Assembly: GCA_943355005.1 (NCBI GenBank) | Contig: CALRDV010000002.1 | Location: 397 to 64,396 of the forward strand | Direction: 5' to 3' | Origin: Patescibacteria group bacterium | Lineage (GTDB): Bacteria; Patescibacteriota; Microgenomatia; UBA1400; MFAQ01 | Length of the DNA: 64,000 nucleotides | Shown here: in pieces, positions 15,451-49,822 of the stretch | Position numbering within the stretch: position 1 is the first letter of the stretch | Layout of the letters: each line of letters opens with the position of its first letter | The notes under the pieces: model-generated | Seen by the model: the letters and a program-made list of their open reading frames with translations, nothing else | What the model was told of the DNA's origin: nothing | The model's database searches: none | Program-made: the position numbers and the translations under genes

Positions 15451-15451
15451 A

Positions 15452-35183: not shown

Positions 35184-35308
35184 TTTTTAATAATATTTAT
35201 TAATACAAAAAGACCCCCTGGGCGGAGGTCATATTTGCATTAATTTACGCAATAATCACCTCCGCCAATTATGGGAAAGATGATGCAAATTAATTAGAAT
35301 AATATTTC

Positions 35309-36517
35309 TCATTTTGCTTTAAGTTTTTTAATCGCGTCCGCGACAAAGACAGTTTCTTGTTCTCCGGACTTCATATTCTTTATGGAAACTTTTTTGGCCT
35401 GAACCTCATCTGCACCAATAATTGCCACATAAGGAATCCCCTTCTTATTCGCATACTTTAGTTGCTTATCCATTTTTGAATCATCTGGATACAGCTCGGT
35501 ATTTATTCCTGCAGCCCTGAAAGCTTGTGCTGTCTCCATGGCTATTACTTTCTGATCGGTGGAAAAGGCAACTACCAATACATTAGTTTTAGTCTTGGTC
35601 GTTGGTATAAGTCCCAGCATATCAGCGGCTTCCACGGTTCTATCAAAACCCATTCCAATTCCGGTTGCTGGTATTTTCAAGCCTGTTAGTCTCTCCATTA
35701 AACCATCATATCTTTCACCACCTCCGACAGAGCCGGCAGTATAGTCCTCTATCACCATTTCCCAGATTGGTCCTTGAGAATACGAAAAGGACCTAGCTAA
35801 TGTCGGTTCAAACCTGTAATACTCTTTGCCAAATCCTGATTTCTCTAAATAAGAAATTATTGTATTGATGGACTCATCCGGTTTTATGTTTAGGACTTGT
35901 TCAAAATACTTTTCGGCTTGGACTTTTCCTATCCCCTTATTAATCATATCCTGTATGACTCCGTCTCTACCGATTTTTTTTAGCTTATCGATTGCCACCA
36001 CTGCTTCATATGGTATCCCTTTCATCAAGTCACGACTGTTTAACATTACGACTGGCTTTTTAAAACCCAAACTTATATAAGTATCCAAATTTTCCGCCAT
36101 TACTTCAGCGTCAGCCGTAGGCGAGGCAACACCAAAAATATCAATATCAAACTGTGTCGGCTCACGGTAACGCCCCTTTTGAGGATTTTCAGCCCGGAAT
36201 ACCGACTGACACTGATAACGCCTGAAGGGCATTGTCAACGAGTTCAGATTATTTGCCACAAAACGACAAGTCGGCACAGTTTGGTCATACCGGAGCATGA
36301 CCTCACGCCCACCATTATCTATAAATTTATAGAAAAGCTTTTCATCTTCTCCGACCTCACCTTGAAAAAGTGAGAAAGATTCAAGTGTTGGAGTTTCAAT
36401 TGGTTCATATCCCCACCGCTCCGCCACCTCAACCATCTTGCTTTTAACCCACTGGCGCTTCCTAGCCTCTTCAGGCATAAAATCTCGAAACCCCTTTAAT
36501 GTTTGTATGTTGTTCAT
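35309..36517 (-). CDS. hisS: Histidyl-tRNA synthetase.
   Basis: …GFRDFMPEEA…, class II core plus C-terminal anticodon-binding domain; 402 aa. Confidence 0.85.
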   Translation of the reverse strand: MNNIQTLKGFRDFMPEEARKRQWVKSKMVEVAERWGYEPIETPTLESFSLFQGEVGEDEKLFYKFIDNGGREVMLRYDQTVPTCRFVANNLNSLTMPFRRYQCQSVFRAENPQKGRYREPTQFDIDIFGVASPTADAEVMAENLDTYISLGFKKPVVMLNSRDLMKGIPYEAVVAIDKLKKIGRDGVIQDMINKGIGKVQAEKYFEQVLNIKPDESINTIISYLEKSGFGKEYYRFEPTLARSFSYSQGPIWEMVIEDYTAGSVGGGERYDGLMERLTGLKIPATGIGMGFDRTVEAADMLGLIPTTKTKTNVLVVAFSTDQKVIAMETAQAFRAAGINTELYPDDSKMDKQLKYANKKGIPYVAIIGADEVQAKKVSIKNMKSGEQETVFVADAIKKLKAK

Positions 36518-36551
36518 AATCTTTATATTAATAATACCTCCTTACCCCCCA

Positions 36552-36582
36552 AAAACGAAAAATCCCGCCTGAGCGGGTTTGT
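36552..36582 (-). terminator. Terminator hairpin (minus-strand sense AACCCGCTCAGGCGGGATTTTTCGTTTTT) after gene 36714..37856.
   Basis: GC hairpin plus T-rich tract. Confidence 0.55.
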
Positions 36583-36713
36583 GACGTTTAGTTGAATAAG
36601 TACGTTAAACCAGCCCAAGTGAATGGAAAGTATGGCTACGATGAGACTTAAGTGTCACCTTATTCATAGGAGTATTCTATCATAACTGTCAAATTAGCCT
36701 CGAATTGGAAATT

Positions 36714-37856
36714 CTAAGCCACCAGTTCCAAATATTTTTCAATCGCGATAGAAAGTATCTCCAAACTTTCAACATCCACCCACTCGCCATTTTTTGCATG
36801 ATGACTTCCGGAGACTGCGGAAGTCGCCAATACTTTAGATCCATATTTATAAAAATGCCTTCCGTCAGTTGCACCATGCATGTTTAAGAAGCCTACTTCT
36901 TTTTTTAATACTTCTTCAATGGTTTTTTTCCATAGTACGACCTGATCATCATCTCGATCGGTTAGACATCCTTCACCCATGCCATGACTAATTTTCTCAC
37001 CCTCTCTCTTATTAGTCTCAGTTACTATCGTGCATTCATTATCCTCACACAGTTTTGTAAAGTCTGCGATACCTTCCTCGAAACTGAAATCTTCTAATGG
37101 CCATCTCCAGCTAAACCAAGCATCCACATCGGATGGAATTGAATTCTCTGAATTTGCACCGGTTTTAATTACAGTCAACTCGAACGTTGAATGCCAATCA
37201 TTATCTTTAGTGGCAACTGAGTACTTTTTTCTCATTTCTGAATATACGTTCAAAAGTCTATTTACCGGATTCTCTATTTCAAAAGCTCTCGATGCGTGCC
37301 CACCAACTCCACTTGCCCGAACATGAAAATGGTGCGGTGCTTTCTGAGACTCGACAATATCAAAGTCATAAGTACCGTCAGGAACAAATACCAACTCAGC
37401 TCTTAACCCTTGCTCCAGAACAAATCTTGCACCATTAAAACCACCAACCTCCTCATCTCCGGTCAACAGTAGTCCCACACTCCCATCTCCACCTTTTTCA
37501 ATGTAACTTCTCAGTGATACCATCATTGCTACATCATGTCCTTTCATATCTCCTGATCCACGGCCGAATATTTTCCCGTCTTCAAGTCTTGAAACAAATT
37601 GGTCTTCGTCGGCATCAACTACATCTATATGACCACTCAACAAAATTCTTACAGGACCACCTTCATTCGTCTCATTTATCCATAGTCTGGAAAATACTCC
37701 ATTTTTTTCAAAATCAACTACTTTTAAACCAAGTCCATCCAAATAACTACTCACCAGATCAAGTGCCGCTAAAACCTCCTTTTGATTTTTTGACTCAGAT
37801 GGTATTGAGACCAATTCTGAAGTCAATTTAACGATTAAGTCTCTTTTTTCTGTCAT
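36714..37856 (-). CDS. M20-family metallopeptidase/deacylase (second copy, ArgE/DapE-like).
   Basis: …LSGHIDVV…, …GRGSGDMKG… motifs. Confidence 0.7.
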   Translation of the reverse strand: MTEKRDLIVKLTSELVSIPSESKNQKEVLAALDLVSSYLDGLGLKVVDFEKNGVFSRLWINETNEGGPVRILLSGHIDVVDADEDQFVSRLEDGKIFGRGSGDMKGHDVAMMVSLRSYIEKGGDGSVGLLLTGDEEVGGFNGARFVLEQGLRAELVFVPDGTYDFDIVESQKAPHHFHVRASGVGGHASRAFEIENPVNRLLNVYSEMRKKYSVATKDNDWHSTFELTVIKTGANSENSIPSDVDAWFSWRWPLEDFSFEEGIADFTKLCEDNECTIVTETNKREGEKISHGMGEGCLTDRDDDQVVLWKKTIEEVLKKEVGFLNMHGATDGRHFYKYGSKVLATSAVSGSHHAKNGEWVDVESLEILSIAIEKYLELVA

Positions 37857-39325
37857 TTTAGTCTGTTAGCTATTTCTAATTCAAGATATCCAATTAACTC
37901 TTCCACTTCATTAAAGTCAGTCCAAGGGTGCATTGCTACAAATCTAAATGCTGATCTACCATTATCCACCTCATCGTTAGTCGAAACATAATAACCATAT
38001 TTTGTATCAACTGACTGTTGCACTTCTCGTACGAGCTGATTGTATATTTCCTTACTCAAATTAATATTGCCAGACAGTCCTATTAACAAGGTATTTAACT
38101 CTGGAACATGAAGCGGTCTAAGTAATTCGGAATCAAAAACTCTTTGATAACAATAACTTGTTAACTCTAGAGTATGCTCCAACAGAGCAACAATCCCTTC
38201 TTTTCCTAGAAGTTTTTCAGTAGCCCAAGTAGCCATAACCCCTGCCGAACCCATGGTTCCTTCAACTCGCGCAGCAAATCCAAAATTCCTTTCCTCCGGA
38301 TCTCCTAACAAACCTTTGTTATCTTCCGGTTGAAGATACCTTGCGCTTTTCTGAATTAAAGCATGATCTTTTCGGCTCTTAAACAAAACAGCGCCGGCTT
38401 CATATGGTACATAAAGCATTTTGTGGGGATCTATCGTAATTGAATCGGCTCTATTAATTCCCTTAAAAAGCTCAGATTTACTTGAGAGAACAAATGGCCC
38501 ACCATATGCTGCATCTACATGCAAATGACTTTTAGTAATTGCTGCCAAATTTGCCAATCCTTCTAAATCATCCACTTCAGCAGTTTCAGTTTCTCCCGCC
38601 AAGGCAATTATCGCCATTACATGTTCCCCTTTTCGGTTAATTTTCCAAATTTCTTTCTGAGCTGCTTCGATATCTGTTTTATATCCTTTTCTTGGCAGTA
38701 AAGTTAAAACCACATTCTCTGTTCCTAGTATCACACAAGCTTTATCTATTGAATAATGTCGCATATCATTTACTAGCACATGCAAAATCGTTCCTGGTTT
38801 CCAGTCCTTAGATTCTTTAAGCTGTTTAATCTTTTTTTCTCTTGCCACCCACAGTGCTGCAATATTTGCCAAAGTTCCGTCGGTAACAATATTTCCACTT
38901 GCTTCTTTCCTGTCGTATCCAAACATGTCAATTAACCAGTCGACAGCTTCTAGTTCCATCTTATGTTCAGACATTGAGACCTCCTTAACAATCGTGTTGG
39001 TATTCATATATGCACCAACTAAACTTGCCAATATACCTACCTTACCTCCCTGGGGATGAATCTGACCCATAAACTTATGATCAAATTTTCTTGTTGATGA
39101 TTCCAAAAACAAAAGTTCCCCCATTATCTCGGTCAACTTATCTGATTCTTGTAATCCACATAACCAGTTTTGAGTATTAAAATCCATTTTTTCCACATCT
39201 CCACCTGTAGCATATATTTGAGCCATCGCCCGTATTGTATCGGCACCTAACTCAGCCATTACTTCCGCAGACTCCGGATTTCTAGGATTTACGAAATACT
39301 CTCTAACCTCTTCAATTTTTTTCAT
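37853..39325 (-). CDS. PLP-dependent amino-acid decarboxylase (group II, Glu/Tyr/Asp decarboxylase-like).
   Basis: …SITIDPHKMLYVPY… PLP-lysine motif; 490 aa. Confidence 0.7.
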   Translation of the reverse strand: MKKIEEVREYFVNPRNPESAEVMAELGADTIRAMAQIYATGGDVEKMDFNTQNWLCGLQESDKLTEIMGELLFLESSTRKFDHKFMGQIHPQGGKVGILASLVGAYMNTNTIVKEVSMSEHKMELEAVDWLIDMFGYDRKEASGNIVTDGTLANIAALWVAREKKIKQLKESKDWKPGTILHVLVNDMRHYSIDKACVILGTENVVLTLLPRKGYKTDIEAAQKEIWKINRKGEHVMAIIALAGETETAEVDDLEGLANLAAITKSHLHVDAAYGGPFVLSSKSELFKGINRADSITIDPHKMLYVPYEAGAVLFKSRKDHALIQKSARYLQPEDNKGLLGDPEERNFGFAARVEGTMGSAGVMATWATEKLLGKEGIVALLEHTLELTSYCYQRVFDSELLRPLHVPELNTLLIGLSGNINLSKEIYNQLVREVQQSVDTKYGYYVSTNDEVDNGRSAFRFVAMHPWTDFNEVEELIGYLELEIANRLK

Positions 39326-39363
39326 ATTTTCTGAGATTATTAATTTTTATATTCAAATTCATT

Positions 39364-39390
39364 ACAAAAAAAGCACCCACATGGGTGCTC
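39364..39390 (-). terminator. Terminator after the tyrS-like gene (GAGCACCCATGTGGGTGCTTTTTTT on the minus strand).
   Basis: 7-bp GC stem plus T7. Confidence 0.65.
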
Positions 39391-39466
39391 ACTTTATAAA
39401 CTAATACGCAATAATAAATCATCGGTATTCAAATACTACACCTATATTAATAATTGTCAACATATT

Positions 39467-40732
39467 TTACAGAATCTTGGCATAACTCCTTTTGCCCTTC
39501 TGGATTATCCCTCCGGATGGAATAACAAAGTCAAAACTATTAATTGTTTGTTCATTAACAGACACTCCTTTGTTTAAAATTAACCGTTTTGCTTCACTTC
39601 TGGAAGGTGCAAATCCAATTTTAACCAATACACTTATTACATCTCTAACTTCCACAGAAAATTCTGGCATTTCAACTGGAACATTTTTCTCGCGCACTGT
39701 CTGTGTAAAATGTTTAAGGGCTGCCACGGCAGCCTGACCACCATGATACTGGTAAGTTAGCTCAAAGGCCAATTCCATTTTTACCTCGATTGGATTAATT
39801 TTTTCTTCTCTAAGCAAATCTATTAGCTCTCTAATTCTTTCCATCGGAATTCCGGTGCAGTGAACAAAATAATCATTCATTTCCTCATCTTTCATGCTCA
39901 TCATCTTCCCAAACATATCTATATTCGTATCCATAATATTTACTACATTCCCCCAACTCGAGCTCATTTTTCTACCATCTAATCCATTTATCAAATTCAT
40001 AGTCATCACCGATTGAGATCTTTGTCCGTATTGTCTCTGAATTTCTCTTCCGGCCAACAAGTTGTATCTTTGATCAGTTCCACCAATTTCCACATCGGCA
40101 CTAACAGCAACCGAGTCATAACCTTGCATAAGTGGGTAGAGTAACTCTCTGGCTGACACCCTTTGTCCACTTGTTAGACGGTCACGAATTATATTTCTCT
40201 GTACAAACTCTGATACTGAGAACATGTCAGCCAACCGACAAACTTCCCCAAAAGAAAGTTTACTTAACCACTCGGAATTAAAATGAACTTCTGTTTTTGA
40301 TAAATCCAATATTTTTCCACACTGCTCGGCATATGTGGCCATGTTTTGAGCTATCTTCTCGGATGTTTGCATCGCCCTACCTGTGGGTTTATCACTTGTA
40401 TCACCGACCTCGCCTGTAAAATCACCGATTATTAGTACTATTTGATGACCCAAATCTTGAAATTCCCTGAGCTTTCGCAGGGGCACAGCTCTTCCAATAT
40501 GAATGAAAGGGCTTGTTGGATCGGTTCCAAATTTAATTCTAAGTTTTTCACCACTTAACAATCTTTCTCTCAAATCATCTCCAATCACCTCATTAACACC
40601 TCTGGTCAACAACGCATCCACTCTTCTTTCCAGTTCTTTTTTTTCATCTTCCACACAACTAGGATCAAAAAAAGCTTTTTCTTTAATCATGCGCTGATAA
40701 TATTCCCTATATTTTAAAAAAGCAAGATACAA
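39467..40732 (-). CDS. Tyrosyl-tRNA-synthetase-like paralog with degenerate HIGH motif (FIHIGRA), KMSSSWGN and C-terminal S4-like domain.
   Basis: …GTDPTSPFIHIGRAVPLRKL…IIGDFTGEVGDTSDK…MQGYDS…KMSSSWGN…; 421 aa; tightly packed with three upstream genes. Confidence 0.7.
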   Translation of the reverse strand: MYLAFLKYREYYQRMIKEKAFFDPSCVEDEKKELERRVDALLTRGVNEVIGDDLRERLLSGEKLRIKFGTDPTSPFIHIGRAVPLRKLREFQDLGHQIVLIIGDFTGEVGDTSDKPTGRAMQTSEKIAQNMATYAEQCGKILDLSKTEVHFNSEWLSKLSFGEVCRLADMFSVSEFVQRNIIRDRLTSGQRVSARELLYPLMQGYDSVAVSADVEIGGTDQRYNLLAGREIQRQYGQRSQSVMTMNLINGLDGRKMSSSWGNVVNIMDTNIDMFGKMMSMKDEEMNDYFVHCTGIPMERIRELIDLLREEKINPIEVKMELAFELTYQYHGGQAAVAALKHFTQTVREKNVPVEMPEFSVEVRDVISVLVKIGFAPSRSEAKRLILNKGVSVNEQTINSFDFVIPSGGIIQKGKRSYAKIL

Positions 40733-40747
40733 AGTACTCTTTTTGAA

Positions 40748-41620
40748 CTATTTCGGACTACAAACATATGCTCCTACAATTAGAGCATGTCCTCTGGTCA
40801 AACAATCATTTAAGTCTGTACCATTTTTTAGTAAATATTCAATCATTTGTCTCGGAATTGTTTTTGACCAATCAATATCATCCATGTAGTTGCTTATCAT
40901 ATTTTCCCAAGTACTTCCATCTCCATACATCCCATACGCTCCCCAATGAATAGATGAATCTTTGGCATCAAAATGAGAATCCTTTCTATTATTTCTGGAA
41001 ATGAACCCATTTGCGACCAATGCATTCACCGAATCGATCCATTCAGAACAAGGGTTAGATTCAAAAGGGTACAGACTAACTTCTTTGGGTAGGCAATTCT
41101 TCAGAGCACCCAACATCATGGGGTTTTGAGTTCTAGTTAGTATTACAGTATCCCTGTTCCAATTGTTTTTTAAAAAATTATTCAAGCATATTTCTCCCAG
41201 CTTTCCCCCTACACCACCAGATCTAACCTTATCAGCCACACCAACAATATCCACATAATATACATTTCGACCCCTCGCATCTAGACTGTATTTTTCACCC
41301 CAAAAACCGTAAAACTTTTCTCCATCAGTTATCAAATTAATTCCGGCGTTTTGAAAGTCGACTAAACTAACTCCATTCAAACTCATGGCCTTTTGAAAAC
41401 ACGCAGATGCCAAAAGAGCTAATCCGATTTTATGTTTTACAGTTACAAAATTTTCGGATTTCAAGAAAACCACACTTAGTCCACTCAAATTACCTACTTC
41501 TAAACCTTTTTGAGAGGCTAGCTTGACTAATTCCTCTATTTCGACCAGATTACCAAGACTATCAATATCAACCACTAATTTGCTTCTTTCCATTTGGGAC
41601 TCCGAATATTCTTCCTTCAC
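40748..41620 (-). CDS. Hypothetical protein, 290 aa.
   Basis: ORF; 15-nt gap to tyrS-like, 1-nt gap to HD gene. Confidence 0.5.
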   Translation of the reverse strand: MKEEYSESQMERSKLVVDIDSLGNLVEIEELVKLASQKGLEVGNLSGLSVVFLKSENFVTVKHKIGLALLASACFQKAMSLNGVSLVDFQNAGINLITDGEKFYGFWGEKYSLDARGRNVYYVDIVGVADKVRSGGVGGKLGEICLNNFLKNNWNRDTVILTRTQNPMMLGALKNCLPKEVSLYPFESNPCSEWIDSVNALVANGFISRNNRKDSHFDAKDSSIHWGAYGMYGDGSTWENMISNYMDDIDWSKTIPRQMIEYLLKNGTDLNDCLTRGHALIVGAYVCSPK

Positions 41621-41621
41621 T

Positions 41622-42350
41622 TTATTTCAAATATTTACATTTTAGCTGATCGGATAAATTCAGGATCCATTTATCTCTCTCGTTATCCTCCAGCTTGTTT
41701 ACTATTTTGTCGGCATTCATTCCCAACCAGGCTAATTCTGATATTTCCTTCATCAACACCATCGACCTTTTAGTATCATCAAAAAACATATTTCCAGTTT
41801 CGTTTAAATTCCTAACTAAGTTATTTGCTGTTTTTGTCATCAAGTGAGATTGTCTGGTTTTAAGATGATTCCTGAGTTCATTTAAGTCACTTTCACTTTC
41901 CAAGACTCTATTTTTCAGCATATTTGTTGTTTTCCATACATGTCTCACAATTCCCAGTGACCCACATTTATCAATGGCGTCGGCGTCATGCACGATCTTA
42001 GACTCCATTGAGCGGTCTGAATTTTCATATTCATGACCAGCCACAGCATCCACTATGCTATCTTTAATATTTTCCTCAATAGGATAATTATCCAAAAACT
42101 TTCTTGTCTCAATTCCAACCCTTTTACTTTCATAGTCGCTTCCGGTGGCCAGGGATACATCATGCACCCAAGCCCCAACAATTGTCACAAAGGGGTTGCC
42201 CCCTTCCTTTTTAAGCAAAAATTTTGCTATTTTATTAACTCTAAACAAATGGGTATTGCCGTAAGATTTTCCTCCGAATGCGTCTTCCCAATCCAGCCGG
42301 ACAGCGTCTCTTCCAATCATATCAATTAGACCAATCTGTGCTTTAGTCAT
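41622..42350 (-). CDS. HD-superfamily phosphohydrolase.
   Basis: …VGAWVHDVS…, …VHDADAIDK… motifs. Confidence 0.65.
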   Translation of the reverse strand: MTKAQIGLIDMIGRDAVRLDWEDAFGGKSYGNTHLFRVNKIAKFLLKKEGGNPFVTIVGAWVHDVSLATGSDYESKRVGIETRKFLDNYPIEENIKDSIVDAVAGHEYENSDRSMESKIVHDADAIDKCGSLGIVRHVWKTTNMLKNRVLESESDLNELRNHLKTRQSHLMTKTANNLVRNLNETGNMFFDDTKRSMVLMKEISELAWLGMNADKIVNKLEDNERDKWILNLSDQLKCKYLK

Positions 42351-44643
42351 TTCTAAAAACTAGCTTAATTCCTAAGTTTAAACAAATATTCGCAAAGTGG
42401 CTTGTACGTGGAATCCTGTGGGATAAATTTATCGCAGAAATTTTATCCTTATTCCTCACCAAACATCTAAATAATTCACCTTGGAACTGATCGATATTAA
42501 TTTTATCGTCCAACATTAAGCCCACAGCAGACTCTTTTATTTCGAGGGCACCTAAATCTTGAAGATTTGATACTTTAAACCATTTCTTAGGATCTTCCTT
42601 GTGAACTTCATTTCGCTCTGATTTTGAATTTAACATTCTTAGTTGCAATATGCGGCTTCCCTTCTGATTTTCCAAAAATTCCATATCTGTCCTGCCTCCC
42701 AATACATGCTCTGCCAAAACAGACAAGTCACCAAACAGCTCAATTGTATCTTGTTTCATCCATCCGTTCGTTAATTCAGCAATGATTTCACCATCGTTTT
42801 TCTCAACCATATCAAACCTCCTATGTCCTCCAACTACATTACCTGGAGTTTCCCCGGTAAAAATTGTCCAATCATCACCATTTCCTTTTGAAAAAACTAC
42901 ACCACCTGCACCTTGATCAAACACATGTATCAGCACTGCAAAAACCGGCTCATCGGATAGACCATGAAGATGTCTGTAACTCACTGCCTTTTCCGAGAAG
43001 AATGAACACAAAACTTTTTTTATAGCTATTCCCAAATCGGCCCTTTTCACACCAACCTCACTTTCGTAAATTCCTGCAGCAGTTCCATTTACCAAGGTAT
43101 CCTCATCAAAAGAAGATGATCTTACAGCCAAGCGATCTCCGCTTACAGACATCAAAACTCGCTCAGAAATTGATTTTGGAAATTCCAACCTCTGTATCTT
43201 TTTTGTTATTTCATTGGAAATCCAAATCTTGTCTTCAATATTTACTGTCTTATTTAAAGTTGAAATCTGTTCGGCAATATTTGAATCCTTCGCCATCCAG
43301 TTATTCAAAGCCTCACTTGTAACCACCACCCCATCTCCTACCAACTCCTTTCCAAATATTTTAATAGCTTCATACAAACCGGCAGCTTTCCCTCCTACCA
43401 GGAAACGATTATTACTCTCTCCCAAGGGGATGGTCGTTTCATTTAATTCCATTTCCACCATTTTTGCCGCGATCTCAGCTACCATTCTGTTTTCTGACTC
43501 TGCCACAGTTTTTAAAAGTTGTTTTTCGATCCAATTATTTTCAAACATCCACAAAGCAAATCTACCTCTGGCTGAAGATGCATCCAAATTCGACAACTGC
43601 GGCAATATTTTTTCCAAAAACTCTTTACGGTGTCCGGGCACTATTTGGCTTGCATCGGCCAATTCTGCAATAATCTGATTTGAAGTTTCACAAACGGCTG
43701 CATATTTCCATCCGGCAGATTTATCAAAATTTTCCTGGTCTTTTTCAATTGTAGTCCAGTTTAAAAATCTAATTAAACCATTCATATCTCTGGCAATCGA
43801 AGCTAAACTCAATTCTTTTGGAAAGCCGTCGACCTTCAATAATTGATTGACTGCATCTCTCTCTTCCAAATCACCCTTTTTCCCTCCGACACTTACTGGA
43901 ATCCACTCCAATGCATTTGCGGCAAAAACAACTTGTTCGATAGTAGTACCCGCTTTTCGCGCAACTCTCATAAGAATAGCCAATTTGTCCAAATCCCGAA
44001 TATTTGAAGTTTCGGTCTCAATTGTGTTCCAGTTCAAATTGTTCCAATCTAATTTATTTGCATGCACCAAATCCCCAAGTGCAGACGGCAAAAGCATTCC
44101 TGCCATATCCAAGAACCCTCCTTGAGTATCTGAATCCTGGTCACCGGAAAAAGGATTACCGGGCGTCTCATTACCGTCACCCACCATCGCTTCAATATGG
44201 TAAAACGGAGCCGCAAAAGCAAAGGCTATTTTCAATCTCCAAAAAAGTTCTGTCAGTCTTTCATTTTTATCCTCAGGTAGCTTTCTTTCACTGAATATTT
44301 TAAATAATCTCCGATCACTTAGTTCGGATATATTTCGCCATTTTTCCAACTCTTCCCATGCCAATACCGGACTACCTTTCATCTTATTTTCCCACTCCTC
44401 TACCACCTCCCAATCCAATAAAGAAACTTCCTGATTAGATTCCAAAAAAGGTATTACTGGTACTGCCCACGTCTTAAAAATTCCAATTGTTTCTCCTGAA
44501 CCCAAAATAACTTTAAACTCATCATCTTCATCTCCAGAAAATAAGTTTACTTTTGTCACTAATCTTTTTCCTCGCTTTAGTTCAGCAATTTTTTTTTCTA
44601 CTAGACTTGAACTTCCCAATTCAATATTTTTATTTTTTTCCAT
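42343..44643 (-). CDS. Large protein with a C-terminal PEP-utilising-enzyme nucleotide-binding domain (PPDK_N/PEP-synthase-like) and an uncharacterised about 400-aa N-terminal region.
   Basis: …VGGKAAGLYEA…, …AVRSSSFDEDTLVNGTAAGIYESEVGV… (compare VRSSAxxED..SFAGQ); 766 aa. Confidence 0.6.
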   Translation of the reverse strand: MEKNKNIELGSSSLVEKKIAELKRGKRLVTKVNLFSGDEDDEFKVILGSGETIGIFKTWAVPVIPFLESNQEVSLLDWEVVEEWENKMKGSPVLAWEELEKWRNISELSDRRLFKIFSERKLPEDKNERLTELFWRLKIAFAFAAPFYHIEAMVGDGNETPGNPFSGDQDSDTQGGFLDMAGMLLPSALGDLVHANKLDWNNLNWNTIETETSNIRDLDKLAILMRVARKAGTTIEQVVFAANALEWIPVSVGGKKGDLEERDAVNQLLKVDGFPKELSLASIARDMNGLIRFLNWTTIEKDQENFDKSAGWKYAAVCETSNQIIAELADASQIVPGHRKEFLEKILPQLSNLDASSARGRFALWMFENNWIEKQLLKTVAESENRMVAEIAAKMVEMELNETTIPLGESNNRFLVGGKAAGLYEAIKIFGKELVGDGVVVTSEALNNWMAKDSNIAEQISTLNKTVNIEDKIWISNEITKKIQRLEFPKSISERVLMSVSGDRLAVRSSSFDEDTLVNGTAAGIYESEVGVKRADLGIAIKKVLCSFFSEKAVSYRHLHGLSDEPVFAVLIHVFDQGAGGVVFSKGNGDDWTIFTGETPGNVVGGHRRFDMVEKNDGEIIAELTNGWMKQDTIELFGDLSVLAEHVLGGRTDMEFLENQKGSRILQLRMLNSKSERNEVHKEDPKKWFKVSNLQDLGALEIKESAVGLMLDDKINIDQFQGELFRCLVRNKDKISAINLSHRIPRTSHFANICLNLGIKLVFRND

Positions 44644-44997
44644 TTTATTGTTTTATTTATAACAAAAAAACCCTCGTCAAACCCCAAAAATTAGGGTTGG
44701 ACAAGGGCCTTTTAAAAAAGACGATACCACCTTGTATTTGTCATCGCCGGAGCGATGACCTTCTCGAACGCTCGTTTACCCATTGGGTGACACGTTCTTT
44801 CTCTATACCGGGAGAACCCGTATCTTGTTACCAAGATCAGCTCAGGAGGGTTAATTCGACAAACAAAGTACGGTTTGCTTTCACCACCCGCAAACTCTCT
44901 AGTGTCACCTTTTCGGTCTACTTTTTCTCCTTCAACGCTTTATTGATTCATTTTAAAGAATAATCAAATGTATCACATCCAAACAAAAAGTCAATAA
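44644..44997. other. About 350-bp non-coding interval with stable hairpins (e.g. GTCATCGCCGGAGCGATGAC). Candidate ncRNA or long leader; not identified.
   Basis: No credible ORF; GC-rich stems; lies between two minus-strand genes. Confidence 0.3.
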
Positions 44998-45330
44998 TCA
45001 TGACAATACACTCATAAGCAAATTATCTCTGCGGTAGTTACGCAAATACATTGGAGAGTCTTGTTCACTTCCAAAATATGGGGGTTCCTTACCAACTCCG
45101 ACACCATCCCAAATATAAGTCTCATCGTTTAATTCAATTTTCAAAAATGAGTGCCACAATCCATACTCATATTCAACCTCTACAGTTTCAAAAACCAAGT
45201 TAATTTCACTTCTAATTAACTCTTTCATGATCAAAAAACACCATTCTCTGCACTTTCCAGGTACAGATACTAATAAAAGTTCGGGGTTTTTTGATATACT
45301 TTCTCGAAAACTACAAAACTCACTTAACAT
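44998..45330 (-). CDS. Hypothetical protein, about 110 aa. The track ORF reaches 45384 but would overlap the divergent gene's start.
   Basis: ORF only. Confidence 0.35.
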   Translation of the reverse strand: MLSEFCSFRESISKNPELLLVSVPGKCREWCFLIMKELIRSEINLVFETVEVEYEYGLWHSFLKIELNDETYIWDGVGVGKEPPYFGSEQDSPMYLRNYRRDNLLMSVLS

Positions 45331-45346
45331 ACGACTATAATATCTT

Positions 45347-47002
45347 ATGTCTGAATCCCAAAATCCAAACACTCCCCCGGCCACAGTCGAGTCCCTAGAC
45401 CTCCACGTTCGCTCCTATCGATCGGCCCTTACCAGTACTCACGAGATCACCATAAACTCCCTGACCAACTCTCACCTCAAGATGGATCCAATCTTGCATC
45501 AGTTTGGTAGCGACCCAAACAAAGTGGACGTCTCAGCCATCGTCTACTCTGTTTTACGTCTACCGGAAGAGATAGATCTGATTCAAAAAGTCATCGCAGC
45601 ACCAACTCCCGACGTATTCTCAAATCACGGTTTTGTTGATGTTCACCTCTGGCCAAACGTGAAAGCCCCCGCCAGAAGACGCAAATACCATTACGATGAA
45701 GTCAAAAGACTTCTTGCTTGTTTCATCATATCTATCTCCGACATTGATGACCTGGTAAACCTACTTATCGCTTTTCAAGTGGAGTGGAACAAGCTTCATC
45801 TCCTGCTCAAGAATCACACCATAGACGAGATACTTACCTCGGAAGAAATTGGCAATCTATCAAAAGCCTTTGGCTCTAACTTTCAAAAACGTTTTGAACG
45901 AATCAAAGATCATCCTTTAGATCTTCGTATTCAATTACTGGCTGGTTCTTGGGTGGATTATTGTAAAGCCACTCAAAAGTGGTGGAGAAGTATTTCCAAG
46001 ATTACAGATAAAAAATTAAAACTCTCCAAGAGATCCGTCTATTTTGTCAGTTCGAATAATCACAGCATTCTCAATCTTATTTCCGGCTTTGCTCTTAAGG
46101 AAAAAGAGAGCATTTTAAAATTCCTCCAAGAGAAAAAGCCTGAGCTCTATCAAGTTTACGAAGCAATCAAAAGTGGTGAGAACCATTTGCCCGAAAATGA
46201 TTTCCTCTATTTCGTCACCAAGTTCTACACTGATATCCCCGAAAACAAAGATGCGAAGAACGCTCTTGAGGAAAAAATAAAGCTTACCACTATACCTAGC
46301 TCCAAATCATTAGATATTAACACTCAAATAATCGCAGTCAAAGATCTTGCTGGTTCCAAACACCTAGATCCAAGGCTCAAAATCACCTCACCTGACAAGC
46401 TCAGTGAATCAGATGCCTTAATCTTTAACATCGACTACCCACTAGGTTTTGCCGCTTATCACATCCTTTCCGAAGTCATGGAAAATGTTCGAGAAATCAA
46501 GGGTGTCTACGTCATGGGCAAAGCTGCAGTACTCAACAGTGAAATCGGCGATATTCAAATTCCTAGATTGGTCTATGACGAACACACCGGTAATTCATAT
46601 ATTTTCCGAAATTGTTTCAACACTTTCTTCCCTTTTGTAAACAATCAAGGTTCCATTCTTACCAATCAGAAAGCTGTTTCTGTTTTGGGTACCTACATCG
46701 AGAACGAAGCTCTCATCAAAAAATACTCAGAGGACAACCTAACTGTCATAGAGATGGAGTCTGGTCCTTACCTTGAAGCCGTCAGTGAAGCCACCTTCGA
46801 TCACCGACACACCACAGACGAAACAGTGGACCTCAGCACCGCCCCATTCGACATCGGCATTGTCGACTACACCTCAGACACACCCTACTCCAAAGCCAAG
46901 AACATGGGAGTCAAAACCCTCACTTTGGACGGCCTAGAACCCACCTACTTGGCCTCTCTAGCCATCCTCCAGCGCATCATCAACCTCGAAGAATCCCGCT
47001 AA
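45347..47002 (+). CDS. Protein with an uncharacterised N-terminal half and a C-terminal PNP_UDP-type nucleoside phosphorylase/nucleosidase-like domain. Apparently leaderless: TATAAT at 45335 sits 6 nt before the ATG.
   Basis: …VMGKAAVLNSEIGDIQIP…, …VIEMESGPYLEAV… (compare MTA nucleosidase VEMEATAIA); 551 aa. Confidence 0.55.
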   Translation: MSESQNPNTPPATVESLDLHVRSYRSALTSTHEITINSLTNSHLKMDPILHQFGSDPNKVDVSAIVYSVLRLPEEIDLIQKVIAAPTPDVFSNHGFVDVHLWPNVKAPARRRKYHYDEVKRLLACFIISISDIDDLVNLLIAFQVEWNKLHLLLKNHTIDEILTSEEIGNLSKAFGSNFQKRFERIKDHPLDLRIQLLAGSWVDYCKATQKWWRSISKITDKKLKLSKRSVYFVSSNNHSILNLISGFALKEKESILKFLQEKKPELYQVYEAIKSGENHLPENDFLYFVTKFYTDIPENKDAKNALEEKIKLTTIPSSKSLDINTQIIAVKDLAGSKHLDPRLKITSPDKLSESDALIFNIDYPLGFAAYHILSEVMENVREIKGVYVMGKAAVLNSEIGDIQIPRLVYDEHTGNSYIFRNCFNTFFPFVNNQGSILTNQKAVSVLGTYIENEALIKKYSEDNLTVIEMESGPYLEAVSEATFDHRHTTDETVDLSTAPFDIGIVDYTSDTPYSKAKNMGVKTLTLDGLEPTYLASLAILQRIINLEESR

Positions 47003-47022
47003 ACAATCACTCTCAGACACTC

Positions 47023-47047
47023 GTCATTCCTGCGAAGGCAGGAATCC
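47023..47047. repeat. Type-A element GTCATTCCTGCGAAGGCAGGAATCC.
   Basis: Family termini. Confidence 0.8.
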
Positions 47048-47064
47048 ATCAAATAAACTCCAAT

Positions 47065-47090
47065 GTCATTCCCGACCTGATCGGGAATCC
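47065..47090. repeat. Type-A element GTCATTCCCGACCTGATCGGGAATCC.
   Basis: Identical to the 10390 copy. Confidence 0.85.
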
Positions 47091-47117
47091 ATATGGAACA
47101 TTTTATCAATTTTAGAT

Positions 47118-47137
47118 AGTTGGCGGGCTTCGAAACA
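47118..47137. repeat. Partial long-repeat terminus (TTGGCGGGCTTCGAAACAAG).
   Basis: Matches the GGCG.GG.TTCGAAC 3' terminus of copies A-C. Confidence 0.5.
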
Positions 47138-47156
47138 AGTAGAAATTAAAGAGATA

Positions 47157-48374
47157 TTATTTTATCAATTTCAAATACTTCCTCTTCCCGATTCTCACCA
47201 CGTTTTCCCCTGGATTTAATTCCAAGTCGGTAGTACCATCAATTCTTTTTTCATTGAGATAAATGGCTCCCTCCTTAAGAAGTGTTTTGAATTCAGTATT
47301 ACTTGTTACCATTCCATTGGCCATTGCATAAGCAACCAGCGAAGCCTCAGCACCCAAAACCGGCACGGCAAACTCCACCTTAATCACTGGTGCATCTTCA
47401 CCTGCCACTTTATTTACCACTGTTTTCTGAAAATACTCTTCTGCTTGGCTAACTGCTTCTACCCCGTGAAGCTCAGACACAATAATTTTCGCAAGTTCTT
47501 TTTTGAGATTCATGGGGTTCTCTCCTTGAGCCAAACGCTTTTTGGCTTCTTCAATTACTTCAGCCGAAGCATTAGTCCCCATTTCAAAATACACAGCCAA
47601 GACATCATCGCTCGTCGACATTATTTTTCCATATATTTCTTCAGGTGAATCCTCAATCCAGATTGCATTCCCCCAACTCTTACTCATTTTTCTCCCATCG
47701 GTTCCAGGCAAGAATCCATTTGCCATGACAAAAGATTCTTTGTTTCTAAGATTTTTTTGCAGTGTTCTGCCCGCTTGCATATTGAAGGTTTGGTCCGTAC
47801 CACCCAGCTGCAAATCTGTATCCATGATGTAACTATCGTAACCTTGCATCATAGGGTAGAACACTTCTGGGAGAGCAATTCTTTTCCCCTCTGTCCACCT
47901 CTTTTTGATCAGTTCACGGCCAATGAAGTCATTTAGCGAAAAATTTTGAGCAAGTTTTAGAACATCACCAAAATTTAATTTTGAAAGCCACTCACTATTG
48001 TGAACCACTTTCACCGTTTCAAAATCTAAAAACTTCGCTGCTTGCCTTTTGTATGTCTGGAAGTTTTCTTCAATTTGCTCGTCGGTCAAGATTGGTCTTT
48101 CTGCTTCTTTGTCTGAAGTATCTCCCACCTTTGCTGTAAAGTCCCCGATCAAAAAAGTCACATTGTGCCCCATGTCGGCCAAGATTTGGAGTTTTCTTAG
48201 AGGAAAAGCATGTCCCAAATGAATTCTTGTCGCCGTCGGATCGATTCCCAAATAGACATTCAATTTCTTGTCAGAATACAAAACTTTTTCCAGCTCATTT
48301 CGGCTAGGAATTATATTTTCAACCCCTCGGGTCAAAAAACTCTCAATTAATGCTTTCTTCTTATCTTCATCCAT
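47157..48374 (-). CDS. tyrS: Tyrosyl-tRNA synthetase (canonical HLGH, KMSKS, C-terminal S4-like domain).
   Basis: …GIDPTATRIHLGHAFPL…LIGDFTAKVGDTSDK…MQGYDS…KMSKSWGN…; 405 aa. Confidence 0.85.
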   Translation of the reverse strand: MDEDKKKALIESFLTRGVENIIPSRNELEKVLYSDKKLNVYLGIDPTATRIHLGHAFPLRKLQILADMGHNVTFLIGDFTAKVGDTSDKEAERPILTDEQIEENFQTYKRQAAKFLDFETVKVVHNSEWLSKLNFGDVLKLAQNFSLNDFIGRELIKKRWTEGKRIALPEVFYPMMQGYDSYIMDTDLQLGGTDQTFNMQAGRTLQKNLRNKESFVMANGFLPGTDGRKMSKSWGNAIWIEDSPEEIYGKIMSTSDDVLAVYFEMGTNASAEVIEEAKKRLAQGENPMNLKKELAKIIVSELHGVEAVSQAEEYFQKTVVNKVAGEDAPVIKVEFAVPVLGAEASLVAYAMANGMVTSNTEFKTLLKEGAIYLNEKRIDGTTDLELNPGENVVRIGKRKYLKLIK

Positions 48375-48391
48375 ATCAATATTCTATCATC

Positions 48392-48422
48392 GTCATTACG
48401 AAGTAATCCGTGGCAATCCAGG
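48392..48422. repeat. Type-B variant in the tyrS 5' region (GTCATTACGAAGTAATCCGTGGCAATCCAGG).
   Basis: GTCATT...GTGGCAATCCAGG. Confidence 0.75.
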
Positions 48423-48430
48423 TTTTGTAA

Positions 48431-49696
48431 TTAAATAATTCTGTTATTAACCTCATTAATAACTTTCTCGGCAAACCCCTCGAGTGTCATGACACCCAAA
48501 TCTTTTTGACCTCTTTGTCTCACCGATACTTGACCACTTTCGGCTTCTTTTTCACCGATGATTAGCATGTAAGGCACTTTCGACGCCTCAGCATTTCTAA
48601 TCTTCTTCCCTAGAGAATCAGCGTCCATGTTCAATTCCACCCTTATCCCCTTAGATTTAAGTTCTTTTACTATTTTTTGCGAATACTCCATCGTTTTTTC
48701 CGAAATAGGCAACACAGCCACTTGGAAAGGTGATAGCCACACCGGAAGCGCCCCATTAAAGTGCTCGAGTAGAAAGGCTGCAATCCTTTCAACTGCACCA
48801 ATGCTGGACCTGTGAATCACTAAAGGCAATTTTTCTTCTCCATCCTTATCCACATATTTCAGATCAAATCTCGTCGGCATGACGAAGTCATACTGAACTG
48901 TAAAGGCCGTTTCTTCTGCTCCATTAATTTTCTTCATCTGGATATCTATCTTGGGACCATAGAAAGCCGCTTCCCCTTCTGCTTCCACAAAAGCACTCTT
49001 TCTTTCATTCAAGACTTCACGCAAGATTCCCTCTGATTTATCCCAGGATTTATCATCATCAAAATATTTTTTCTTGTCATTTCTATCTCCCAAAGACAGT
49101 CTATAAGAATAATCCTCACCCATCTTAAGTCCAAATATTCCAGCCATGTACTCAATCAGTTCCAGTGCGTGAGCAATTTCCGATTTTGCCTGGACTTCAT
49201 CAGCACAGATAATATGTGCGTCTGCCAAACAAAAACTTCTTACTCGAGTAAGTCCTGTAAGCACTCCGGAAAGTTCATAACGATATAGTTTCGCCATCTC
49301 AGCAATTCGCATAGGCAGTTCGCGGTAGCTTCTTGGTTTAGACAGATAAAGTTCAAAGTGATGAGGGCAAGTCATAGGACGAAGCATAAATTCTTCATCA
49401 TCCACTTGTATCGGCGCATACATTGTCTCTTTGTAATAAGGATAATGTCCAGATTTCTTATATAAATCCAGTTTGGCAATATCAGGCGTATACACATGTT
49501 GGTAGCCCCACTCGATTTCCGTATCCACGACAAACCTCTCCAGTTCACGTCGGAAAGTGGCACCTTTAGCCGTCCAAAGTGGCAAACCTTTCCCCACCGT
49601 CTCTGAGAAAGTAAACAAATCCAGTTCCCGACCAATTACCCTATGATCTCTTGGATCTAGATTTTCTTCAACAATGTTTTTATTTTTATCTTCCAT
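48431..49696 (-). CDS. thrS: Threonyl-tRNA synthetase, minimal form (catalytic and anticodon-binding domains only; no N-terminal TGS or editing domains).
   Basis: …RDHRVIGRELDLF…, class II core, C-terminal anticodon-binding domain; 421 aa. Confidence 0.8.
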   Translation of the reverse strand: MEDKNKNIVEENLDPRDHRVIGRELDLFTFSETVGKGLPLWTAKGATFRRELERFVVDTEIEWGYQHVYTPDIAKLDLYKKSGHYPYYKETMYAPIQVDDEEFMLRPMTCPHHFELYLSKPRSYRELPMRIAEMAKLYRYELSGVLTGLTRVRSFCLADAHIICADEVQAKSEIAHALELIEYMAGIFGLKMGEDYSYRLSLGDRNDKKKYFDDDKSWDKSEGILREVLNERKSAFVEAEGEAAFYGPKIDIQMKKINGAEETAFTVQYDFVMPTRFDLKYVDKDGEEKLPLVIHRSSIGAVERIAAFLLEHFNGALPVWLSPFQVAVLPISEKTMEYSQKIVKELKSKGIRVELNMDADSLGKKIRNAEASKVPYMLIIGEKEAESGQVSVRQRGQKDLGVMTLEGFAEKVINEVNNRII

Positions 49697-49733
49697 TTTT
49701 CTTTATATTTTAATAAAAATTTAAATCGTGATA

Positions 49734-49822
49734 GGTGCAGAAGACTAGCCAAAATCGAGCGCAGGGATGCCCCCGTACTCGGAGCGAGCCGAGCACTGAT
49801 TTTGACGGGCTTCGAACCAAAC
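49734..49822. repeat. Copy C of the long dispersed repeat (conserved termini, divergent middle), upstream of thrS.
   Basis: 5' GGTGCAGAAGACTAGCCAA and 3' GGGCTTCGAACC match copies A and B. Confidence 0.65.

Follow-up and report, generated by a model that had tools for sequence, protein, structure and literature searches.

Why does a bacterium of the candidate phyla radiation (CPR, or Patescibacteria) carry two genes that encode a tyrosyl-tRNA synthetase (TyrRS), one of them with altered catalytic signature motifs and packed in among genes for phosphotransfer enzymes? The question is raised by a 64-kb stretch of contig CALRDV010000002.1 (hereafter the window, meaning the whole of this stretch), which comes from a Candidatus Collierbacteria genome. 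Four tightly packed minus-strand genes at 39467-44643 encode a dikinase-like protein with a PPDK_N domain, an HD-domain phosphohydrolase, a 290-aa protein and the second synthetase, TyrRS2; the other synthetase, TyrRS1, is encoded some distance away. These open reading frames (ORFs) are all present as they had been described in an earlier examination of the letters alone (the sequence-only reading), and the ORF translations show the motifs it reported, FIHIGR and KMSSS in TyrRS2 versus IHLGH and KMSKS in TyrRS1. Its PPDK_N and TyrRS family assignments were upheld by Pfam and NCBIfam, and its HD assignment by a weak NCBIfam match (32 bits). The four genes exist, but the unit they belong to is larger than was supposed, with a T-box leader upstream and a decarboxylase/M20 hydrolase pair downstream (36714..39325). 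We consider it probable, with moderate confidence, that TyrRS2 is a competent accessory TyrRS acting as a starvation-inducible backup in a tyrosine-homeostasis island with a dikinase-phosphatase core.

TyrRS2 is most likely a competent enzyme

TyrRS2 scored 298.5 bits on the TIGR00234 tyrS model (cutoff 113.8) and matched PF00579 with an E-value of 6e-63. TyrRS1, to which it is 40% identical over the full length, scored 334.5 bits on the same model, and both proteins fail every trpS model. TyrRS2 also has matches to PF01479 (S4) and PF22421 (SYY_C-terminal), and its best Protein Data Bank (PDB) matches are near full-length alignments to the bacterial TyrRS entries 6bqy, 6byq and 1h3e. The true start of the gene is almost certainly the ATG at 40690 and not the mechanically called TTG at 40732: it gives a protein of 407 aa, which is also the length of P0001, the 81%-identical orthologue. 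A relationship to cyclodipeptide synthases was considered and rejected, as the full TyrRS architecture is kept, including the tRNA-binding domain.

The canonical HIGH and KMSKS motifs are absent from TyrRS2, which has HIGR and KMSSS instead, and the sequence-only reading had taken this for degeneration. Comparison with relatives contradicts that view. The 120 best TyrRS2 relatives, 52-81% identical to it, are TyrRS of other CPR/Patescibacteria lineages; those few with a name are labelled Parcubacteria, Saccharimonadales, Portnoybacteria or Minisyncoccales. H-(I/L/V)-G-(R/Q) is found in all 120, with R in 113, Q in 6 and one missed by the search pattern, and KMSSS in 113. The human TyrRS, an active enzyme, also has KMSSS (PMC7613620). 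Since H-x-G-R and KMSSS are conserved across the homologues and KMSSS occurs in the human enzyme, these motifs are a clade signature and not a sign of inactivity. TyrRS2 further retains 112 of the 120 positions that are conserved at ≥95% in its clade. Its nonsynonymous divergence (dN) from the orthologue in Ca. Collierbacteria GW2011_GWC2_44_18 is 0.129, similar to the 0.118 of TyrRS1; synonymous divergence is saturated for both genes between the window and this nearest relative, so that dN alone is comparable. Judged by these alignments, TyrRS2 is under purifying selection.

The sequence-only reading had also proposed that TyrRS2 might supply a missing tryptophanyl-tRNA synthetase (TrpRS) activity, and had suggested inspecting the amino-acid pocket. 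The tyrosine-pocket motifs YPLMQGYD, GGTDQ and GDTSDK proved intact, which speaks against the TrpRS idea; we take them to correspond to Tyr169, Gln173, Asp176, Gln195 and Asp78 of Bacillus stearothermophilus. On trpS models TyrRS2 reached 15-23 bits against cutoffs of 177-597 (21.9 bits against 176.75 for TIGR00233, and 15-23 bits against 451-597 for the others), far from its tyrS score. The non-canonical motifs, and the fact that a trpS gene was not found within the window, could be quoted in favour of a TrpRS or of a decaying pseudogene. Given the trpS scores, the intact pocket, the full-length open frame with its S4-like domain, the purifying selection and the clade-wide retention of the motifs, we regard either as extremely improbable. 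TyrRS2 is most likely a catalytically competent TyrRS of a type widespread in CPR bacteria.

TyrRS1 is the inherited copy and TyrRS2 the accessory one

The homologues of TyrRS1, several of which carry the label Collierbacteria, densely fill the range between 100% and 64% identity, and the TyrRS1 gene is part of a conserved backbone, ArgRS-LysRS-ThrRS-(toxin/antitoxin)-TyrRS1-...-HisRS-M20-...-GlyRS. For TyrRS2 there is just one close relative (81%), the next ones being at ≤63% and in other contexts, and in a neighbour-joining tree it falls inside a CPR group, clade B, far from TyrRS1. In addition, the stretch at 38-42 kb has a GC content as low as 0.37, compared with ~0.41 elsewhere in the window. 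By these differences TyrRS1 is the inherited housekeeping gene and TyrRS2 an accessory gene, probably of lateral origin. Among sister Collierbacteria loci, the islands of L009, L025, L027 and L063 adjoin TyrRS1 and have no second TyrRS, and that of L013 has a TyrRS of a different clade; TyrRS2 itself occurs in two of seven Collierbacteria-type islands.

The contexts of relatives were read in ~10 kb around each match. The two nearest TyrRS2 relatives outside the lineage whose contexts were read, P0002 and P0003, are in ordinary surroundings, adjoining GlmS and a SNase gene, and there is no dikinase gene beside either. The association with the dikinase is therefore a property of the island and not of clade B.

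A predicted T-box leader precedes the dikinase gene

The leader upstream of the dikinase gene matches the Rfam T-box model RF00230 over its entire length (model 1-219 of 219; 91.3 bits, E 9e-21; gathering score 93) and, although ten aminoacyl-tRNA synthetase (aaRS) genes lie in the window, no other T-box was found there. Orthologous T-boxes precede the dikinase gene in related loci. Those of L001 (100.6 bits) and L040 (96.5 bits) are above the gathering score, and further ones were found in L012 (89.9), L013 (84.1), L009 (83.0), L010 (82.0) and L048 (76.6). Across the 34 lineages into which the loci of the dikinase family were clustered at <90% identity, and to which all lineage counts refer, the T-box core motif is upstream of the dikinase gene in 23, two of which also have a poly-Tyr leader ORF.

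At least 17 distinct related T-boxes have the specifier loop GAA-U-UAC-(C/A), with the tyrosine codon UAC. In the window the specifier loop is at 44842..44860, its 3' strand reads GAAUUAAC, and the antiterminator bulge is UGGU. The GAAUUAAC variant, shared by the window, L001, L009 and L025, has one extra A compared with GAAUUAC, giving UAAC. The UGGU bulge would pair with A73, and the tRNA-Tyr genes found at islands have A73. The predicted terminator (fold of 44655..44735, -29.5 kcal/mol, z = -4.96) overlaps the 3' side of the T-box motif, the layout expected of a terminator/antiterminator switch. No T-box or other leader was found before the TyrRS genes themselves.

Compared with the T-boxes of Firmicutes (RF00230), the window T-box is alike in its Stem I with the AGAGA and GGUGAAAG distal motifs, its specifier loop, its T-box sequence GGUGGUA(C/U)C and its terminator, and the UAC specifier of the island relatives is likewise shared. 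The Firmicutes elements control aaRS, biosynthetic or transporter genes, whereas the first gene behind the CPR island T-box is the dikinase gene. They also usually have a purine after the codon where many island members have C, and the one-base specifier insertion (UAAC) sets the window lineage apart. There was no paper on T-box riboswitches in CPR or Patescibacteria among the top matches of a literature search.

The HD gene overlaps the dikinase gene by 8 nt and is thereby predicted to be translationally coupled to it, and the gap between the 290-aa gene and the TyrRS2 ATG is 57 nt. From this packing, the dikinase, HD, 290-aa and TyrRS2 genes appear to be co-transcribed behind the single T-box.

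Putative leader-peptide attenuators as a second kind of tyrosine sensor

In five of the 34 lineages a poly-Tyr leader without a T-box stands before the dikinase gene (for example MKDNQRKLNSYYYYYYDLFRGD). Such dikinase leaders are followed by a terminator, as in MKVINGKNTYYYYLLFREGGYYVP, MITVAVTKNYYYQIFTL and MKDNQRKLNSYYYYYYDLFRGD, and contain a GGGAGG segment complementary to the 5' arm of that terminator. By its sequence, this is the layout of a classical attenuator, with a predicted regulatory sign that is the same as that of the T-box. In the Collierbacteria and Woesebacteria-type islands examined, no poly-Tyr leader was found before the dikinase gene; a T-box is in its place.

In some islands whose phosphatase is of the PP2C type (L037, L038 and L039), the T-box is followed, past its terminator, by a short ORF with YYY or YYYY, such as MKTKLTNTSYYYDFHAGG, and in L039 the end of this ORF overlaps the dikinase start codon. 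This arrangement would mean two tyrosine sensors in series.

The decarboxylase gene appears to have a leader of its own. Hairpin 39390..39371, which looks like a terminator of TyrRS2, is by comparison with related loci part of a conserved decarboxylase leader, in which a promoter-like site is followed by a near-leaderless short Tyr-Tyr ORF (MIYYC... in the window), a hairpin with a U-tract and the decarboxylase start. The layout is the same whether the upstream gene is that of TyrRS2, the HD protein or the 290-aa protein, and the TATTGAC box of the promoter-like site is conserved in an alignment of five loci. Short ORFs with YY, YYY or YYYY precede the decarboxylase gene in L001, L009, L025, L027, L063, L013, L010, L011 and L035, with leader peptides elsewhere such as MIYYSLGF, MKYYLDSK, MNYYYMVDILV, MINSYYYFIGSI, MLNSEYYYLSKDNA and MTTGYYYYFSPSF. 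The hairpin is in the same place across related loci and differs in stem sequence. In the window the leader ORF reads through it, and the fold of 39362..39425 has an energy of -20 kcal/mol (z = -4.86). By a strict criterion this leader is present in nine of 12 lineages (per-locus chance 0.013-0.037), and the other three have variant forms. Seven of those nine have the leader stop codon -2 to 10 nt from the hairpin; for L027 the automated hairpin call looks wrong, and manual reading puts the stop codon at the hairpin.

The his, phe and pheST attenuators share with the island leaders a promoter, a short ORF of cognate codons and a terminator hairpin with a U-tract, and the antiterminator segment of classical attenuators (GGGAGG versus CCUCCC) recurs in the dikinase leaders and in a hisS leader described below. 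The decarboxylase leaders differ from the classical type: they are very short (8-14 codons) and nearly leaderless, and no antiterminator was found in them. In pyrBI the terminator is occluded by the ribosome. The geometry of the decarboxylase leaders suggests the same, with a regulatory sign opposite to that of classical attenuators. A ribosome reaching the hairpin would block termination, and the decarboxylase genes would therefore be expressed when Tyr-tRNA is plentiful.

The dikinase is a rare CPR family with an invariant C-terminal histidine

The 766-aa protein matches PF01326 (PPDK_N) over residues 415-587 with 72.4 bits (cutoff 27; E 5e-20). An AlphaFold2 (AF2) model (predicted local distance difference test, pLDDT, 89; predicted template modelling score, pTM, 0.91) divides it into an all-alpha N-domain (1-403), an ATP-grasp PPDK_N domain (~404-700) and a C-terminal alpha/beta unit of 65 residues. 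The best Foldseek matches were the ATP-grasp domain from rifampin phosphotransferase (RPH; 5hv1, E 1e-11), phosphoenolpyruvate (PEP) synthase (2ols) and HpeI (9goj), with PPDK found too. In an alignment of homologues, the C-terminal sequence IPRTSHFANIC contains a T-S-H motif in which His749 is invariant and Thr747 near-invariant. No PDB match (Foldseek best E 0.2, probability ≤0.08) and no Pfam domain was found for the N-domain. A profile of this domain retrieved 96 proteins among 1.84 billion representatives, nearly all of the same architecture. The dikinase has 60 full-length homologues in a 5.8-billion-protein index, 13 loci in 185,579 species genomes, nearly all in Microgenomates-type CPR bacteria, and 43 metagenome loci. 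As modelled, the dikinase thus represents a rare CPR-only family with a predicted new N-terminal fold.

The island dikinase has the ATP-grasp domain in common with the small-molecule dikinases (RPH, HpeHI, phenylphosphate synthase and PEP synthase). These carry a phosphohistidine where the island protein has the invariant histidine of T-S-H in its C-terminal element, and the phospho-His element is probably shared. The domain order differs, running from an N-terminal substrate domain through ATP-grasp to the His element, and while the known subfamilies each have a known substrate domain (the PEP/pyruvate triosephosphate isomerase-type barrel or the RPH/HpeH-type domain), the island dikinase has none of these. 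The Hpe pathway reportedly has a dedicated phosphatase step, much as the island pairs its dikinase with a phosphatase. HpeHI phosphorylates phenolic hydroxyls with a sub-micromolar KM and behaves as a scavenging enzyme (PMC12167813).

The island usually pairs the dikinase with interchangeable phosphatases and recurrent tyrosine-related genes

In 23 of the 34 lineages the dikinase gene is directly followed by a recognised phosphatase gene, and most of the others are contigs too short to show one. The phosphatase is mostly of the HD fold; it is of the PP2C/SpoIIE type in L014, L015, L017, L037, L038, L039, L043 and L065, and His_Phos_1 in L018. For the HD protein of the window the nearest PDB entries are uncharacterised HD hydrolases. 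A TyrRS gene is found ≤8 kb from the dikinase gene in 19 of 34 lineages which, together with the four genes behind one T-box in the window, substantiates the linkage of a TyrRS paralog with phosphotransfer genes that had been noted from the sequence. The TyrRS genes at islands are of several clades: clade A is the local housekeeping gene, clade B is found in the window and L001, clade C is monophyletic and island-associated with HxGH and K(M/I)GKT motifs, and clade E is Bacillus-like.

A group II pyridoxal phosphate (PLP)-dependent decarboxylase gene is alongside the dikinase gene in 15 of 34 lineages and an M20 hydrolase gene in 10, the latter co-conserved with the decarboxylase gene; in the window the M20 gene overlaps the decarboxylase stop by 4 nt. 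The best PDB match of the M20 protein is 2rb7, an uncharacterised M20 protein. Further recurrent neighbours encode prephenate dehydratase or dehydrogenase, an ELFV amino-acid dehydrogenase and an EamA transporter. The 290-aa protein has no Pfam, NCBIfam or PDB relative; it shows marginal GNAT-like similarity (E 0.03-0.05) and one ankyrin-like repeat near its C-terminus. Its only orthologue among the loci is in L009 (65% identity, same position), and its gene is, by this distribution, a lineage-specific insert.

Bacterial tRNA-Tyr normally has a long variable arm. In five lineages (L010, L011, L034, L035 and L042), 0.1-2.1 kb upstream of the dikinase operon, there are tRNA-Tyr(GUA) genes that are only 71-74 nt long and have G1-C72, A73 and a variable loop of 4-5 nt. 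In L010, L011 and L035, clade C and D TyrRS genes are downstream of the short tRNA-Tyr in the same island. No tRNA gene was found in the 64-kb window.

A model for the island and the alternatives to it

The sequence-only reading had also suggested a tRNA-dependent or amino-acid-activating side pathway in place of housekeeping aminoacylation. No support for such chemistry emerged, and the evidence on TyrRS2 fits an ordinary tRNA-charging enzyme that is conditionally expressed. In the model that we favour, an operon with a T-box leader at its start received the TyrRS2 gene as an insertion at its 3' end. Since a T-box stands at the operon start and its relatives have a UAC specifier, the operon (dikinase, HD, 290-aa protein and TyrRS2) would be transcribed when uncharged tRNA-Tyr accumulates, making TyrRS2 a starvation-inducible second synthetase beside a constitutive TyrRS1. 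The decarboxylase and the M20 hydrolase would form a second arm, with its own promoter and Tyr-Tyr attenuator, that is read through when Tyr-tRNA is plentiful and that may, under good supply, use up or convert tyrosine or a related compound. The dikinase would move an ATP phosphate via His749 to a hydroxyl on some small molecule related to tyrosine, perhaps to tyrosine's own phenol, and the phosphatase would remove it again. We infer phosphorylation of such a hydroxyl by analogy, because the relatives HpeHI and phenylphosphate synthase phosphorylate phenols and because the regulation points to tyrosine. That three unrelated phosphatase folds are interchangeable suits a simple aryl-phosphate substrate. 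A tentative extension, the most attractive version but one that we think more doubtful than probable, is that the dikinase and its interchangeable phosphatase, switched by tyrosine sensors, form an undescribed pathway that scavenges or stores tyrosine, which is poorly soluble, or its immediate precursor by high-affinity 'phospho-trapping' in auxotrophic ultra-small bacteria. It is equally tentative that the dedicated TyrRS paralogs and, in some lineages, the tRNA-Tyr with a short variable loop would serve this system.

Several points weigh against this model. The window T-box is 1.7 bits under the Rfam gathering score and was therefore missed by a default Rfam scan. Its specifier could be read as UAA or as AAC (Asn) and not as UAC, so that its predicted tyrosine specificity is taken from its relatives. 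In the dikinase tree the four diverged loci with the UAAC variant are scattered among UAC lineages, and the variant is therefore maintained. Co-transcription of TyrRS2 we infer solely from the short gaps (57 nt) and the lack of a convincing terminator. On the enzymatic side, the N-domain of the dikinase gives no substrate clue, and its C-terminus has no match to the PF00391 swivel domain in Pfam even at E 10. The decarboxylase is below every NCBIfam equivalog cutoff (PanP 154, MfnA 137 and DABA decarboxylase 134 bits) and its PDB neighbours are of mixed specificity; its substrate, like that of the M20 hydrolase, is not assignable from sequence. PP2C phosphatases are known as protein phosphatases, which makes a protein a better-fitting substrate than a small molecule. 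Finally, a kinase and a phosphatase encoded in one operon would run a futile cycle unless their actions were kept apart.

Might the second synthetase instead be a resistant copy? The island could make or accumulate a tyrosine analogue that inhibits TyrRS1, or an external inhibitor could be involved, and TyrRS2 would be insensitive to it. Tyramine from the decarboxylase and a phosphorylated tyrosine derivative from the dikinase are candidate inhibitors, and the altered HIGH and KMSKS motifs could contribute. The recruitment of extra TyrRS of clades B, C and E to the island in different lineages suggests a recurrent need, and the nearest structural relative of the dikinase, rifampin phosphotransferase, inactivates an antibiotic. 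For the motifs there is a precedent in IleRS2, where an altered HIGH motif is reported to give mupirocin hyper-resistance (PMC10485003). However, H-x-G-R and KMSSS are common to the 120 best homologues, and P0002 and P0003 lie off any such island; the motifs are therefore not an island-specific adaptation. The island-associated clade C TyrRS has canonical HIGH together with KMGKT, the sister islands of L009, L025, L027 and L063 do without a second TyrRS, and core enzymes that would synthesise an inhibitor were not found. We therefore hold resistance to be unlikely. The same four islands, and many others without a second TyrRS, are difficult to reconcile with a tRNA-dependent pathway, in which Tyr-tRNA made by TyrRS2 would feed a transferase (the 290-aa protein or GNAT-like neighbours) or be modified on the tRNA by the dikinase, as with PSTK/SepSecS. 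This idea draws on the marginally GNAT-like protein adjoining TyrRS2, on a GNAT-like gene that overlaps TyrRS_C in L010, on the short-variable-loop tRNA-Tyr(GUA) genes just upstream of the island in five lineages, and on the presence of a kinase, a PLP enzyme and an aaRS in one island. The 290-aa gene, though, is found in two lineages only, the island tRNAs read ordinary Tyr codons (GUA), the window has no tRNA gene, and T-box control is the standard regulation of ordinary aaRS genes. Such a pathway seems to us quite improbable. About as little can be said for TyrRS2 being a redundant, recently transferred gene of no special role that landed in a variable hotspot between tyrS1 and hisS. The TyrRS1-HisRS region does vary among Collierbacteria (toxin-antitoxin, DUF6909, tRNA_edit and extra HisRS paralogs), and TyrRS2 is in only two of the seven islands. 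Against this, two genomes that have diverged to saturation at synonymous sites both keep TyrRS2 in one and the same place, its dN is as low as that of TyrRS1, and the independent recruitment of clade C and E TyrRS elsewhere argues for selection.

Relation to known systems

The closest precedent for a tyrosine-responsive second TyrRS is the tyramine cluster of Enterococcus and Lactobacillus (tyrS-tdc-tyrP-nhaC; TDC, tyrosine decarboxylase), in which a TyrRS-like gene is beside a PLP decarboxylase gene, as in the island. The enterococcal tyrS of this cluster is transcribed maximally without tyrosine (PMC3315439). The tyramine cluster includes a transporter; island relatives L010, L015, L034, L035 and L042 have EamA, which is not of the APC family, whereas the TyrP-type antiporter and NhaC are absent from the window's island, which contains no transporter. 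The island decarboxylase is not an orthologue of TDC (TIGR03811, 86.9 bits against a cutoff of 905) and, unlike it, has its own putative poly-Tyr leader-peptide attenuator, and the T-box-led dikinase-phosphatase pair has no counterpart in the tyramine cluster. A second, tyrosine-responsive TyrRS beside a decarboxylase is thus a known theme of lactic acid bacteria. What is new is the different decarboxylase family, the different or absent transporter, the two kinds of tyrosine sensor and the dikinase-phosphatase core, a pair without a described counterpart.

Bacillus subtilis tyrS and tyrZ are duplicated TyrRS genes of which one is conditionally regulated. Like the window's pair, they encode two divergent bacterial-type TyrRS with an S4-like C-terminal domain; the window's second copy differs in belonging to a CPR-specific clade with H-x-G-R and KMSSS and in lying inside a dikinase island. 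Unusual CPR TyrRS and tRNA-Tyr identities have been described for archaeal-type enzymes, not for clade B (PMC5370408).

The value of the locus lies less in TyrRS2 itself than in a putatively doubly tRNA-Tyr-sensed island around an uncharacterised enzyme family. The two independent kinds of tRNA-Tyr sensor, the recurrent TyrRS genes and the prephenate/aromatic genes point to tyrosine, which narrows the search for a substrate and gives a functional handle on a new-fold family with ~100 representatives among 1.84 billion. For annotation of aaRS genes it is useful that H-x-G-R with KMSSS is, on this evidence, the normal signature of a large CPR TyrRS clade, and clade B may inform class I catalysis without the second histidine and the second lysine. 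The repeated recruitment of different TyrRS clades to the island amounts to a natural experiment on duplicate synthetases. CPR bacteria with very small genomes appear to use both T-box riboswitches and leader-peptide attenuation, for tyrosine and for histidine, and for a single amino acid they may combine attenuators of two geometries with opposite signs.

Feature coordinates

Table 1. Positions of the island genes, leader elements and aaRS genes in the window, and of short tRNA-Tyr genes in other loci (locus coordinates). Features of the island and its leaders are on the minus strand unless stated.
Feature	Position	Strand	Basis or remark
Promoter, sigma-70-like, TTGACT-16-TACATT with TG	44967..44994	-	Consensus scan match only; directly 5' of T-box start
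T-box leader RNA (predicted)	44700..44944	-	Rfam RF00230, 91.3 bits
Intrinsic terminator of T-box expression platform, then U7	44665..44713	-	Fold
Dikinase-like PPDK_N protein, 766 aa	42343..44643	-	ORF list; PF01326, E 5e-20
HD-domain phosphohydrolase, 242 aa	41622..42350	-	Weak NCBIfam PRK10119 match, 32 bits
290-aa protein	40748..41620	-	ORF list; 1 nt after HD gene
TyrRS2, 407 aa, HIGR/KMSSS, S4-like C-terminal domain	39467..40690	-	TIGR00234, 298.5 bits
Promoter-like site of decarboxylase operon, TTGACA-16-TAGTAT	39433..39460	-	Best regional promoter match, 10/12
Leader ORF MIYYCVLVYK..., tandem Tyr codons 39411..39416	39312..39422	-	Sequence reading
GC-rich hairpin and U-tract (putative attenuator terminator), hairpin 39390..39371	39364..39390	-	Terminator scan and fold
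Group II PLP-dependent amino-acid decarboxylase, 490 aa	37853..39325	-	PF00282, E 1.6e-35
M20-family (ArgE/DapE-like) amidohydrolase, 380 aa	36714..37856	-	PF01546 and PF07687
TyrRS1, 405 aa, HLGH/KMSKS	47157..48374	-	TIGR00234, 334.5 bits
hisS leader: promoter-like TTGACA/TAGAAT, ORF MNKVTLKSHRSHTFHSLGLV (three His codons), hairpin CCCGC-TCAG-GCGGG and U-tract	36564..36667	-	
Short His-rich ORF, the second one, MRNIILINLHHLSHNWRR; lies between the GNAT-like gene (34308..35183) and hisS	35212..35300	-	
HisRS (hisS)	35309..36517	-	aaRS cluster
LeuRS	19639..22110		aaRS cluster
Asx/LysRS-type	30385..31695		aaRS cluster
Gly/ProRS-type	31761..33143		aaRS cluster
ThrRS-type	48431..49696		aaRS cluster
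LysRS-type	50003..51478		aaRS cluster
ArgRS	51991..53703		aaRS cluster
Short tRNA-Tyr(GUA), L010	9417-9489		
Short tRNA-Tyr(GUA), L011	7833-7903		
Short tRNA-Tyr(GUA), L034	2820-2893		
Short tRNA-Tyr(GUA), L035	7108-7179		
Short tRNA-Tyr(GUA), L042	7449-7521		

Histidine leaders and neighbouring genes

The hisS gene of the window is preceded by what looks like a classical His attenuator on an aaRS gene in a CPR bacterium. Leaders with His codons are conserved before hisS in L025 (MSKFVLAIHRAHWTPMFGRV), L013 (MMTKFVVDIHHRHVCHLLGGV), L005 (MSKFVFAIHHAYWNHSFGGV) and L009, and the minimum-free-energy fold of the hisS leader is the antiterminator. The second His-rich ORF, MRNIILINLHHLSHNWRR, is followed 25 nt on by a hairpin, GACCTCC-GCCCA-GGGGGTC, with a U-tract. 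The GNAT-like gene behind it overlaps a second M20 hydrolase gene (33140..34327), and this unit of His ORF, GNAT-like gene and M20 gene may be a histidine-themed counterpart of the tyrosine island.

The ten aaRS genes of the window are within ~34 kb (19639..53703), and the order ArgRS-LysRS-ThrRS-TyrRS-HisRS is kept in other Collierbacteria. Between TyrRS1 and the island, on the plus strand, is a gene for a 551-aa DUF6909 protein (45347..47002, E 2.5e-162). An insert of this kind at the TyrRS1-island site was found in the window and L063 (5613-7265) only, and it is another variable insert at this site. In L007 (11630-15466), from a Collierbacteria genome that lacks the island, two divergent HisRS-like genes (441 and 463 aa) stand on either side of a peptidase S66 gene, and past this pair come two genes for GNAT acetyltransferases. 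The surroundings of tyrS1 and hisS look like a hotspot at which aaRS paralogs accumulate. In another Collierbacteria genome (L005/L006, 3124-5652), ArgRS is fused to an N-terminal B3_4 domain in an 842-aa product.

Elsewhere in the window, at 11970..16318 on the minus strand, two RimK-like ATP-grasp genes accompany an ATPgrasp_ST domain fused to a Zn-protease domain and a seven-transmembrane (7TM) protein of a type that is usually fused to an inactive transglutaminase. This cluster looks like a peptide-ligase or modification module.

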